From Escherichia phage P1, in the sequence record MH445381.1: a DNA stretch of 64,000 nt; one strand, given 5' to 3'. A program made the position numbers and the translations under genes. Under the pieces are notes generated by a model, which was not told where the DNA came from, searched no databases, and saw nothing but the letters and a program-made list of their open reading frames with translations. This document shows positions 32,784 through 33,513 of this stretch, piece after piece. Each line of letters starts with the position of its first letter. Position 1 is the first letter of the stretch.

Positions 32784-32868
32784 ACAACAGGTAAGGGTAT
32801 TTTGCGACGTCGGAGATCGCCGAGCTTGGCAGAGGGTTCGAATCCCTACGAAGTACCCTTACCGTTGT
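32784..32868 (+). other. tRNA-like element: T-arm-like sequence inside a 15-bp inverted repeat
   Basis: ACAACAGGTAAGGGTA ... AGGGTTCGAATCCCT ... TACCCTTACCGTTGT; no clean cloverleaf. Confidence 0.3.
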
Positions 32869-33513
32869 GATGAAGTGCAGCTCTTTGAAGCAACCAGAAG
32901 ATAAGCATCTGGCTTCACAACATAAACCGCAGGAACGACCAATAAACGGTAGTCCGTATGGAGAACACCCCGTTGAGGAAGAGGCCTGGCCGGAACCGTA
33001 ACCGGCACTACAACGTTGAGAACACTGGCGTAACGGGGTCATATCCCAATCTACGAATAAATGTTGCGTTGCAGCGTGACAACCAGTGTTCTCAACATTG
33101 TGGTGAATGCACAGGCTGATGTGCCGCAACTACAGTAGTGCGCGCTTTGCGGGGCTTGCTACAACCCTGTGTCGGAGTTCAGCACCGACCATCACAGTTT
33201 GATTCTCTGGCATGAGCATAACGCTGAAATAAGTCCAGCCTGGTGCGGCCCGATCACCCGCCGTTAGCTCCACGAAACGGAGCACGTAACAGGTAAGAGC
33301 ATTCTCCTGTAACGGGTTCATATCCCAATCTACAGGTCCACCAAGAATGCTCTTTCCGTTGCGGTGAATGCGGCTAAGCGCACGCGGGGAAATGGTTATA
33401 TCAGTCCATTCATTTCTCCTTGTTTCCCCGTCCACGGTGGATAACCAGCCAAAGGACACCGGGAGGCACCCGGCACCGCAGCTTTTTTATTCGTTAAATA
33501 ATGGAGTGAGAGG

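Follow-up and report, generated by a model that had tools for sequence, protein, structure and literature searches.

The P1 segment that directly follows tRNA-Thr (32782-33500 of the window, i.e. of the whole 64,000-nt stretch analysed, sequence record MH445381.1) raises the question of what, if anything, it encodes. The P1 reference annotates it as two minus-strand coding sequences, plp and upl; an earlier note on this DNA, which had listed repeats and a T-arm-like sequence there and had considered tRNA pseudogenes, processing sites or a small RNA, overlooked both this annotation and the regular H-S-H-S-H-S array described below. All the features that it listed are present, either exactly in place or a few bases off.

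Architecture of the array in the ban operon leader

Sequence comparison revealed 99-100% identity to P1-type phages across the window, and the P1 gene order is kept in it: Pban with the C1 operators, the dicF-like region, the tRNAs, and ban. The array is located in the untranslated leader (~3 kb) of the C1-repressed ban operon, 3' of tRNA-Asn and tRNA-Thr. It consists of three head-to-tail H-S units (H-S-H-S-H-S) on the plus strand, which is also the strand of the tRNAs, and a fourth H element lies 5' of the tRNAs (Table 1). An intrinsic terminator is found ~190 nt downstream of Pban, and no sigma-70 consensus promoter was detected between this terminator and the tRNAs; the sigma-70 scan of 31800-35000 found no promoter at all and missed the known Pban too, so that it says little. 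The dicF-like region had no match to Rfam DicF at E<=10.

Table 1. Positions of the H and S elements and of neighbouring features in the window
Feature	Position	Strand	Description
C1 repressor operator pair and Pban promoters	31945..31972		Homology to NC_005856 68667-68694; start of the ban operon leader
dicF-like region of the P1 reference	32070..32172	+	3' end is an intrinsic terminator, stem 32135-32154 followed by T7
H0	32344..32424	+	5' of the tRNAs; 5' arm with AACAGGTAAGGG; R2 41.5 bits, E 1e-8 (minus strand 39.1); fold z -5.4
tRNA-Asn (GTT)	32628..32703	+	
tRNA-Thr (TGT)	32706..32781	+	CCA end to first base of H1, 1 nt
ORF of P1 plp (putative lipoprotein)	32752..33129	-	125 codons; TTG start; end overlaps tRNA-Thr in antisense
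H1	32783..32869	+	R2 54.1 bits, E 6e-12 (minus strand 30.0); fold z -5.6
S1-like short module (GTGATGAAG…CCAGAAGATAAGCATCTGG CTTCAC AAC)	32867..32921	+	BLAST modules; R1 15 bits, E 0.005
Small hairpin CCGG-AACCGTAA-CCGG	32990..33005	+	Abuts H2; same type 5' of H in other phages
H2	33006..33105	+	Diverged arms CAACGTTGAGAACACTGG / CCAGTGTTCTCAACATTG; R2 24.8 bits, E 3e-4, plus strand only; fold z -6.45
S2, canonical S	33100..33198	+	R1 63.7 bits, E 2e-13
ORF of P1 upl	33130..33459	-	63 aa in the P1 reference, 109 aa here
Small hairpin GCTCC-ACGAAAC-GGAGC	33267..33283	+	Just 5' of H3
H3	33285..33363	+	R2 52.3 bits, E 2e-11 (minus strand 26.1); fold z -5.1
S3, STnc100-like subtype	33361..33482	+	R1 27.6 bits, E 1.6e-4; Rfam STnc100 37.8 bits, E 3e-6
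T6 run	33483..33488	+	Directly 3' of the S3 closing stem; terminator-like

The H elements are long hairpins of 17-23 bp, with conserved arms (AACAGGTAAGRG… and …CYCTTWCCGTTG) around an exchangeable insert. Since the arms fall in two registers, with and without a bulged A, they were counted by a two-register scheme. For the bulged-A class a covariance model, R2, was built from unrelated phages only, without P1 sequences, and membership in the family was assigned by its matches to a long closing helix of ~19 pairs, usually with the bulged A, around a variable insert. In the 64-kb window R2 recognized exactly four plus-strand sites (54.1, 52.3, 41.5 and 24.8 bits) and none elsewhere, which places all four hairpins in the family. 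The helix of H1 (32783-32804 / 32849-32869) comprises 22 pairs, two of which are G·U, and has a single bulged A; six pairs of its outer part are maintained despite two-sided changes in seven homologues from other phages. The sequence of the small hairpin GCTCC-ACGAAAC-GGAGC also precedes H in many unrelated phage contigs.

The repeats reported previously are parts of this array. The motif AACAGGTAAGRG indeed occurs exactly three times (32347, 32786, and 33288), on the plus strand only, with 0.01 occurrences expected by chance and none of 100 shuffles reaching three. The repeat described as two copies of ~27 nt was confirmed as GTAACGGGKTCATATCCCAATCTAC, with 24 of 25 bases identical between 33030-33054, where it opens the insert of H2, and 33309-33333, within the insert of H3. 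The 14-bp inverted repeat GTTGAGAACACTGG / CCAGTGTTCTCAAC is likewise real, though it is just the core of longer, 23-nt arms (33006-33028 / 33083-33105) that are 91% complementary. The T-arm-like sequence GGTTCGAATCC (32835-32845) does lie within an inverted repeat, as claimed, but not in a perfect one of 15 bp: the longest perfect run is 10 bp (32790-32799 / 32854-32863).

The S elements combine a closing stem of 6-7 bp, a 5' hairpin, an exchangeable middle, and a 3' hairpin abutting the closing stem. Membership was assigned by this layout together with a significant score against R1, a covariance model obtained from non-P1 phage contigs. R1 has two to three matches in the 64 kb, all of them on the plus strand, and by both features S2 and S3 are S elements. 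In S2, the closing stem GTGGTG/CATCAC encloses the 5' hairpin GCACAGGCTGATGTGC, the variable middle, and the 3' hairpin GTCGGAGTTCAGCACCGAC. The S1-like module, found by BLAST also in SSU5-like Klebsiella phage-plasmids, Sashavirus, and P22-like phages, is of uncertain membership because its R1 match is weak (15 bits). S3 is closed by TGCGGTG (33360-33366) / CACCGCA (33474-33480); its score against the Rfam family STnc100 (RF02076) is below the gathering score of 47 and covers model positions 31-147 of 206, and S3 is assigned to an STnc100-like subtype of S. Homologues in D6 and RCS47 score 38-40 bits with the same model. The S3 stem is followed by GC and six T only in the P1 variants with a downstream SPFH cassette, and the tciA-type variants are without this run. 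In other phages, 30% of S elements have a terminator-like site within 200 nt downstream, compared with 4% of control windows.

Two loops of S, GGCUGA and UCAGC, could pair in a kissing contact, a prediction on which covariation is silent, as both loops are invariant among S elements. The 3' loop is not a T-loop, and S resembles a tRNA in layout only.

The tRNA gene-like features of the block were assessed by the presence of a cloverleaf with an anticodon arm and by Rfam RF00005 and ARAGORN, which identified only tRNA-Asn and tRNA-Thr. Relaxing ARAGORN, as the earlier note had recommended, yielded nothing new down to 85% of the threshold and, at 80%, a lone 95-nt call, which is spurious and draws on the end of tRNA-Thr; Infernal with the Rfam tRNA model had no match in 32782-33500 at E<=10. 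Tentative tRNA pseudogenes are thus unsupported as proposed, and the scenario of a decayed tRNA remnant does not suit elements that are conserved with compensatory changes. Parts resembling a tRNA are nevertheless present in the insert of H1, where an acceptor-like helix of 7 bp (32798-32804 / 32849-32855) is stacked on a canonical T-arm (32833-32847, loop TTCGAAT) and accompanied by a D-like hairpin (32804-32820) with GG in its loop, with no anticodon arm. Both the D-like and the T-like hairpins are invariant in the seven homologues and so weigh neither for nor against a tRNA-like element, whereas the outer helix covaries. In other hosts, H-type arms enclose an apparently complete tRNA.

Two further identities were considered and dropped. 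The gammaproteobacterial boxA consensus GYTCTTTAANA (PMC5725501) has no match with <=1 mismatch in 31900-34950; the 3' arm of H contains UGCUCUUU, and the boxA-like GCTCTTTCCGT of the H arms has 3 mismatches and is buried in the stem. With the consensus unmatched throughout the ban leader, the boxA/boxB/boxC idea is reduced to a minor remark. The integron attC site was rejected on direct reading, as GCACAAC and GTTGTGA do not fit the cores RYYYAAC and GTTRRRY, and the excess of G·U pairs described below points to RNA rather than to an attC or other DNA site.

Conserved RNA frames and exchangeable inserts

H and S are RNA-level structures of the plus strand. The arms of H pair with their own partners at a level of 0.91, compared with 0.75 when arms are swapped between loci, and the duplex energies of own and swapped arms differ accordingly (p = 4e-12). 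In the S helices, 99% of the cells are paired, and 8 of the 16 pairs keep pairing through two-sided changes, a result reached by none of 500 shuffles. The H arms contain 67 G·U pairs versus 8 A·C pairs, and the S helices 29 wobble cells versus 6 unpaired ones; both excesses fit an RNA transcribed from the plus strand. All tRNA genes found near H in viral contigs (61/61) are on the H strand. The RNA folding that the earlier note had suggested as a check bore out the structures: the four hairpins have z of -5.1 to -6.5 relative to shuffled sequences, with 0 of 200 shuffles as good, and the entire stretch 32775-33495 is also more structured than shuffled (z -5.15). The inserts of H and S are no more structured than shuffled sequences (z about -0.4), and the idea that they are additional structured domains was rejected on this value.

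In both families the frames are conserved, whereas whole inserts have been exchanged. Five rearrangements were found among P1 relatives, and every junction lies within an H arm, at an S end, or in the insert segment that is repeated. RCS47 has an insertion of one S+H unit, there is a P7/Ro157 insert swap and a D6/P7 replacement, and the breakpoint of a downstream cassette swap is located exactly at the S3 end. A deletion in SJ46 left a hairpin with non-matching arms, which implies that at least one unit is dispensable. The real tRNAs at these positions also differ, being tRNA-Tyr in Ro157c2 and tRNA-Ser in D6 and P7.

H and S constitute two families widespread in the operon leaders of temperate phages. 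Each is present in >120 viral contigs, and 100 distinct contexts surround 113 copies of S. The S motif was found in 58 species-representative genomes, including high-GC Betaproteobacteria; S is present in prophage-like DNA across Proteobacteria, and the frames are shared as exact 24-mers from E. coli phages to Betaproteobacteria. Individual insert variants are 95-99% conserved on unrelated phage backbones, and one of them occurs in 1070 of 5426 complete E. coli genomes. The contexts elsewhere include the interval between the antiterminator Q and holin genes and the position after a CI-type repressor, and in a P22-like phage one shared module belongs to the leader that precedes the gene of antiterminator N. 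In lambda, R2 matches 44787-44862 with 62 bits, between tR' and gene S; we claim lambda for H only, since its S-like element matches just the closing stem of R1 (11 bits).

Neither family is catalogued in Rfam 15: H and canonical S from 28 related loci and lambda match no family, and canonical S elements such as S2 have no STnc100 match at E<=0.01. Rfam searches of the window (at gathering scores) and of the block (by E-value) returned just the tRNAs, the sub-threshold STnc100 match, and chance miRNA-like matches to the long hairpins. Literature text searches for the conserved H and S sequences retrieved nothing relevant.

Possible functions of the array

plp and upl are probably spurious annotations and not genes: the block is a row of folded modules, the frames of which are conserved and the inserts highly variable, so that it most likely does not represent two hypothetical genes. 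The minus-strand proteins Plp and Upl of the reference annotation, the least credible of the explanations weighed here, can draw on open frames of 125 codons (plp) and 63-109 codons (upl), on a plp-like frame that is open in every P1-family variant examined, on upl clusters in PHROGs, and on a P1vir RNA-seq paper that lists upl as expressed from assigned reads, the strand not being given. However, plp starts with TTG, ends in antisense to tRNA-Thr, and has a Cys-rich translation with no clear lipobox; Pfam has no family for either frame, and PHROGs none for plp. D6, P7, and SJ46 lack upl, and each module swap alters the ends of plp. Distant module homologues were used for the codon-position test because the P1-type sequences, being 97-100% identical, lack power. 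In these diverged homologues, 46 of 50 indels have lengths not divisible by three and break the frame, and the substitutions by codon position (118/147/168) are only weakly skewed to the third, so that frame conservation, third-position bias, and family membership all fail to indicate coding. Moreover, other phages possess the modules without these frames and in the orientation of their tRNAs, and RefSeq has no feature over the homologous DNA in E. coli among the matches listed (25 and 60).

Among the readings of the earlier note, the evidence favours processing sites or a small RNA, given that the structures are formed at the RNA level on the tRNA strand and that the last element resembles the STnc100 small RNA domain. 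The explanation we prefer, to which we give about an even chance, is that the array would be a series of co-transcribed and processed small RNAs, built on conserved scaffolds and derived from the C1-repressed ban leader. Once C1 repression is lifted, the leader would be transcribed from Pban, and its cleavage would release the tRNAs along with stable small RNAs. In this, the long H stems would serve as stabilizing helices and as sites of double-strand processing; their length of 17-23 bp with a bulge or mismatch would fit an RNase III-type site. The S frame may serve as a tRNA-like scaffold recognisable by tRNA-processing enzymes such as RNase P or RNase Z. The variable and mostly unstructured inserts would be the working parts, most likely in base-pairing regulation, as in the prophage small RNAs STnc100 and PasD, and the conserved frames could double as homology patches by which phages swap inserts. 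Several observations count against it: the intrinsic terminator downstream of Pban, the dispensable unit of SJ46, the resemblance of S to a tRNA in layout only, the sub-threshold STnc100 score of S3, and the share of just 30% of S elements with a terminator-like site nearby. The hypervariable inserts could also be unconstrained filler.

A rather unlikely alternative is that the modules act only in cis. Their structure would then punctuate a polycistronic leader, for example by RNase III control of tRNA maturation and of downstream ban expression, for which the lambda N leader is a parallel, or would shield the 3-kb untranslated RNA from Rho and nucleases, with the inserts as free filler. The fact that the elements always belong to a long 5' leader, in operons that are induced or antiterminated, agrees with this, as do frames far more conserved than the inserts, inserts without excess structure in a block that is structured as a whole (z -5.15), and the GCTCTTT of the H 3' arm, which corresponds to positions 1-7 of the boxA consensus GYTCTTTAANA (PMC5725501). 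Yet the full consensus is unmatched (no site with <=1 mismatch in the ban leader) and the stretch is hidden in a stem, insert variants 95-99% conserved over unrelated backbones and in 1070 E. coli genomes are unlike filler, the inserts were swapped whole and not drifted, and the relatives STnc100 and PasD act in trans. It is improbable that the frames are mainly recombination patches at the DNA level, serving as cassette boundaries for the exchange of tRNA and small-RNA cargo by homologous recombination, with RNA structure as a by-product, even though all rearrangement junctions among P1 relatives fall in them and many phage lineages share the modules: changes in the arms are compensatory and conserve pairing and not sequence, the ratio of 67 G·U to 8 A·C pairs and the higher plus-strand scores are unexpected for a DNA site, and there is no dedicated recombinase among the annotated neighbours. 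As a secondary role, such patches are compatible with processed small RNAs. Very improbable is a block of junk, made of decayed tRNA and cassette remnants without present function. The tRNA-like arms of the H1 insert, the different real tRNAs in relatives, and the deletion tolerated by SJ46 could be read in this way, but not the frames conserved as exact 24-mers from E. coli phages to Betaproteobacteria, the compensatory pair changes, the lack of any tRNA-model signal, or the fold z of -5 to -6.5.

An extension of the preferred explanation, processed small RNAs on conserved scaffolds, is bolder, and we regard it as doubtful: H and S might together be a general system of scaffolds and cassettes, shared by temperate phages throughout the Proteobacteria, in which universal and almost invariant frames are recognised by conserved RNA machinery of the host and present a rapidly exchanging repertoire of inserts. 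S would then be tRNA-shaped by virtue of a loop-loop contact, and H, as an elongated acceptor-like helix, could even hold tRNAs. The inserts, expressed from operon leaders on induction, might serve as guides, decoys, or anti-defence RNAs. If so, a programmable RNA layer would have gone unrecognised in P1, lambda, and many prophages, and its repertoire could be searched via the frames.

If processed small RNAs are indeed produced from the array, two hypothetical genes of a classic model phage, plp and upl in the P1 reference genome, would have to be reinterpreted as non-coding RNA, and the well-studied leaders of P1 ban and of the lambda late operon (tR' to gene S) would contain members of two structured-RNA families that are widespread yet missing from Rfam 15. 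In the sampled RefSeq records H and S are unannotated. The explanation also provides testable ideas on how phages mature arrays of tRNAs and small RNAs.

Comparison with known phage and prophage RNAs

The tRNA cluster of phage T4 includes stable RNAs (species 1 and 2) that share the tRNA transcript and are released from it by the tRNA-processing machinery. T4 is virulent, its stable RNAs have no sequence relation to H or S, and to our knowledge they are not families of a scaffold with a variable insert. RNase III hairpins in polycistronic phage RNAs are represented by the T7 early sites, the lambda N leader, and sib. H would be similar to them in its ~20 bp, its conserved bulge or mismatch, and its position between RNA units; we know of no phage RNase III site with exchangeable inserts of 40-140 nt. 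Processing scaffolds of tRNA-like type include mascRNA of MALAT1 and the engineered 'tRNA scaffold' for RNA expression, in which foreign RNA replaces the anticodon arm. S resembles them by an acceptor-like helix on a terminal hairpin (6-7 + 5 bp, corresponding to the ~12 bp of the tRNA top half), and some H arms hold tRNA-like inserts. In contrast to tRNA scaffolds, S has neither D- nor T-loops and lacks a CCA end, and the Rfam tRNA model is unmatched.

Among prophage small RNAs, S resembles STnc100 and PasD, which are located in prophage operon leaders as S is in phage operon leaders. They have the layout of S, with a closing stem UGGUG/CACCA, GAAU, a 5' hairpin, and a variable middle, and share with it the 3' hairpin CCGGG-AGGCA-CCCGG beside the closing stem; S3 differs from STnc100 by the absence of model parts 1-30 and 148-206. 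PasD was experimentally found to be Hfq-dependent (PMC8550237), and STnc100 and PasD were described to have a shared fold and differing seeds (bioRxiv 10.64898/2026.05.13.724894).

In lambdoid prophages, the 'moron' site at pR' encodes the anti-sRNAs AgvB and AsxR (Tree et al. 2014, PMC4104026). They are comparable to H and S in their location 3' of Q and pR', in the combination of a conserved part (~42 nt, at the 3' end) with a short variable part that sets the target, and in the presence of related non-identical copies in many prophages. AgvB and AsxR are 51-60 nt long, have their own promoters, and form convergent pairs, whereas H and S are larger and follow one another in tandem on the strand of the operon, with no separate promoter visible; the Rfam models of AgvB and AsxR matched neither the window nor the related loci searched. 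As the frames of H and S are conserved and their inserts hypervariable, the frames could be used to catalogue thousands of phage small-RNA inserts, and such a catalogue would extend the picture of a conserved scaffold with a variable seed, as in AgvB/AsxR and STnc100/PasD, well beyond pathogenic E. coli.

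Organization and folding of the array

Re-examination of the block that follows tRNA-Asn and tRNA-Thr (32783-33500) confirmed every repeat listed in the earlier note, and the finding is real and beyond chance. The motif AACAGGTAAGRG occurs in three copies, all on the plus strand, against 0.01 expected; the long direct repeat measures 25 nt with 24 of 25 positions identical; and the 14-bp inverted repeat forms the centre of longer, 23-nt arms. The T-arm-like sequence GGTTCGAATCC does lie inside an inverted repeat, which is not the perfect 15-mer described, since its 22-pair helix is interrupted by a single bulge and includes two G·U pairs.

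These repeats are pieces of one regular plus-strand array of two elements: H, a long hairpin with conserved arms and an exchangeable insert, and S, composed of a closing stem, a 5' hairpin, a variable middle and a 3' hairpin. The four H elements have arms of the form (C)ACAAC(A)GGTAAGRG… / …CYCTTWCCGTTGYG, and the 25-nt repeat is a segment common to the H2 and H3 inserts. H1, H2 and H3 each share three bases (GTG) with an S element starting GYGRTGAAT. The S closing stem has 6-7 bp, and its 3' strand comes directly after a terminal hairpin.

Features of the ban operon leader in the window
Feature	Position	Strand	Remark
C1 operators and Pban	~31945-31972		by homology to NC_005856; first in leader order
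'dicF-like region'	32070-32172		~100-200 nt after Pban; ends in intrinsic terminator
Intrinsic terminator	stem 32135-32154 + T7		end of 'dicF-like region'; early in leader
H0	32344-32424	+	5' of the tRNAs
tRNA-Asn	32628-32703
tRNA-Thr	32706-32781
H1	32783-32869	+
S1-like	32867-32921	+	short, weakly supported
Small hairpin	32990-33005		abuts 5' side of H2
H2	33006-33105	+	diverged arms
S2	33100-33198	+
Small hairpin	33267-33283		abuts 5' side of H3
H3	33285-33363	+
S3	33361-33482	+
Variable cassette	33483-34558		3' of block; SPFH-domain gene here instead of tciABC
Small ORF	33514-33750		in cassette
SPFH-domain gene	33731-34558		in cassette
Third tRNA			3' of cassette
ban	34942		after third tRNA

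The segment 32000-33800 is identical (100%) to two Punavirus P1 records, and 32000-33480 is 99% identical to the P1 reference, NC_005856; homology to the latter places the array within the ban operon leader of this P1-type phage-plasmid. The 'dicF-like region' gave no Rfam match to DicF at E<=10; its position just 3' of Pban and its strong terminator suggest a small RNA gene of its own under C1 control, heading the leader. The 200 nt from H0 to tRNA-Asn (32424-32627) contain a CGGGTATATCCCG hairpin like that in the 25-nt repeat and, just 5' of tRNA-Asn, one similar to the S 3' hairpin (GCCGGAGACGTACCCGGC). The tRNA at 34586-34661 is called Met (CAT) by ARAGORN; its homologue in the P1 reference is annotated as tRNA-Ile2 (ileX-like), a tRNA that would depend on lysidine modification. 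The hairpin GACAGCCGGGAAGAGTCCGGCGCA (34828-34852, ~90 nt 5' of ban) resembles the GGAAGAG-loop hairpins preceding H in other phages (e.g. BUCT554, L010 ~1985-2010). Elsewhere in the window, Rfam identifies the P1 C4 antisense RNA with a1/b1 target sites (12123-12328) and a sok antitoxin RNA of a hok/sok-type addiction module (15785-15959).

Structured RNA modules on the operon strand are well supported. Folding yielded z scores of -5.1 to -6.5 for the hairpins and -5.15 for the entire 721 nt. A covariance model of S built from 37 non-P1 elements (R1) gave 63.7 bits (E 2e-13) for S2 and 27.6 bits for S3. Over 41 distinct S matches, 99% of cells are paired and 8 of 16 pairs are retained although both partners change, values that shuffles and slid registers never approach. 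Hairpins 5' of S, gathered independently of the H motif, have arms that differ greatly in sequence and still pair (0.91 with their own partner versus 0.75 when swapped; duplex energies differ, p = 4e-12). A model of 16 such non-P1 hairpins (R2) recovered exactly H1, H3, H0 and H2 in the 64 kb, with plus-strand scores above minus-strand scores. Oppositions in the H arms comprise 67 G·U versus 8 A·C, an excess expected only if the folding molecule is plus-strand RNA. For H1-type inserts from seven phages, covariation in the outer helix extends as far as the T-arm, with five pair types at one position, and no variation occurs in the D-like and T-like hairpins. In S, the 5' hairpin loop GGCUGA (e.g. 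33114-33119) is complementary to UCAGC in the 3' hairpin loop (33173-33177); since neither loop shows more than minimal variation all the way from E. coli phages to Betaproteobacteria, the two could form a contact resembling the tRNA elbow.

Distribution and exchange of the modules

A scan of viral contigs for the H 5' arm found at least 120 loci; a matching 3' arm was present in 102 of the 135 matches listed, and their inserts (39-137 nt) are unrelated, several having T-arm-like hairpins. In phage lambda, an H element occupies 44787-44862, with the 6S/tR' terminator on one side and gene S on the other. The corresponding scan for the S 5' end gave at least 113 usable copies; all 113 listed, in 100 distinct contexts, have GTGGTGAATGCGCAGGCTGATGCGC … GCCGGAGATCAGCACCGGCCACCAC flanking 20-150 variable bases. 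Lambdoid contigs carry the array between the antiterminator Q, represented by two unrelated Pfam families, and the holin, or 3' of a CI-type repressor. tRNA genes occur near 29 of the 102 listed H elements, and all 61 of these tRNAs are on the H strand. An exact 24-mer of the S 5' end was found in 58 species-representative genomes, where complete S ends are present; the hosts include Enterobacterales, Aeromonas, Marinobacterium and high-GC Betaproteobacteria (Janthinobacterium, Massilia, Xenophilus). One S variant occurs in 1070 of 5426 complete E. coli genomes, with no annotated feature at its site in 25 records sampled across the ranking.

Comparison of P1 relatives shows that H and S units are modules. 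P7 and Ro157c2 keep the H1 arms around a different 39-nt insert, RCS47 has one additional S + H unit, and in D6 and P7 the S2-to-H3 segment is replaced by another S, a tRNA-Ser-like gene and another H. Salmonella phage SJ46 (L006 1740-1800) has lost the 255 nt between the two 25-nt repeats by recombination between them (33054 joined to 33309); the arms of the resulting chimeric hairpin do not match, and one unit has in effect been knocked out in nature. The tciABC and SPFH cassettes are exchanged at a breakpoint lying exactly at the S3 3' end, and the U-run making S3 terminator-like belongs to the SPFH cassette. Lower-stringency BLAST found single modules in unrelated temperate phages: SSU5-like Klebsiella phage-plasmids (directly 3' of a tRNA-Asn), Sashavirus, a Uetakevirus and P22-like phages (5' of the antiterminator N gene). 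In the four contexts examined the modules lie under short hypothetical ORFs or in unannotated DNA.

An 85-nt gene resembling tRNA-Ser(UGA), long extra arm included, occurs in D6 (L004 1963-2047), P7 and Klebsiella pJN2-26 (L009 2070-2154); it scores as tRNA-Sec at 43-44 bits, just under the gathering score of 47, lacks annotation in pJN2-26, and has an H-type hairpin after it. In Massilia (L217 4450-4560) and locus L202, H-type arms (CACAGC…GCTGTG and CACACACACGCC…GGCGGGTGTGTG) surround an apparently complete tRNA, with an S element directly after. This arrangement points to H helices being extended acceptor stems.

Possible function and alternative explanations

The modules combine conserved covarying frames, exchangeable inserts and tight junctions with tRNAs, and are spread through phage operon leaders. 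We propose that H and S function as processed small RNAs. Loss of C1 repression would allow transcription of the leader, and cleavage of the transcript would then release tRNAs along with stable small RNAs. In this scheme the H stems, 17-23 bp long and interrupted by a conserved bulge or mismatch, would provide double-stranded helices for processing and stabilisation. The S frame would offer a tRNA-like scaffold, in which the 6-7 bp stem and the 5-bp hairpin on which it stacks together come to roughly the length of a tRNA top half. The active parts would be the inserts. The inserts are no more structured than random sequence, yet are conserved as individual variants. In a secondary role, the frames probably double as recombination patches. 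Weak points of the proposal are the terminator early in the leader, the natural SJ46 deletion, which breaks one unit, and the invariance of the two S loops that may touch. The principal competing explanation confines the modules to cis-acting work, in processing, insulation or protection from Rho. A search of the ban leader for a boxA-type antitermination site gave a negative result.

Minor alternatives are DNA-only recombination sites, decayed tRNAs and the annotated proteins. The earlier note's suggestion of tRNA pseudogenes is not supported, and its processing-site or sRNA idea was the better half of that interpretation. The P1 reference annotates the block as plp and upl, two minus-strand genes of unassigned function; P7, annotated by the same school, is without genes here. 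The plp frame has a TTG start and an antisense run into tRNA-Thr, belongs to no Pfam or PHROG family, and has a Cys-rich translation with no clear lipobox; its ends shift with every module swap. In PHROGs, upl forms self-clusters only, and it is absent in D6, P7 and SJ46. Among diverged module homologues, 46 of 50 indels have lengths not divisible by three, and substitutions by codon position number 118/147/168. Together with the strand-specific RNA evidence, these observations make plp and upl unlikely genes.

Relation to known small RNAs

Apart from P1-type plp/upl calls, H and S are unannotated in the public-record entries examined. Rfam 15 contains no family for H or canonical S; its STnc100 core is matched only by S3 and homologues (38-40 bits versus a gathering score of 47; positions 31-147 of 206). 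Text searches of the literature for the conserved sequences found no match, although a description in a subscription journal is still conceivable. The prophage sRNAs STnc100 and PasD have been reported to have a common fold with differing seeds and targets (bioRxiv 10.64898/2026.05.13.724894; PMC8550237), and the region 3' of pR' carries sRNAs with a conserved and a variable part, AgvB and AsxR (PMC4104026). Given these precedents and the lack of an Rfam family, H and S appear to be undescribed families within a known theme. The block thus consists of an array whose units come from two widespread families of phage RNA, of which S is related to STnc100/PasD.
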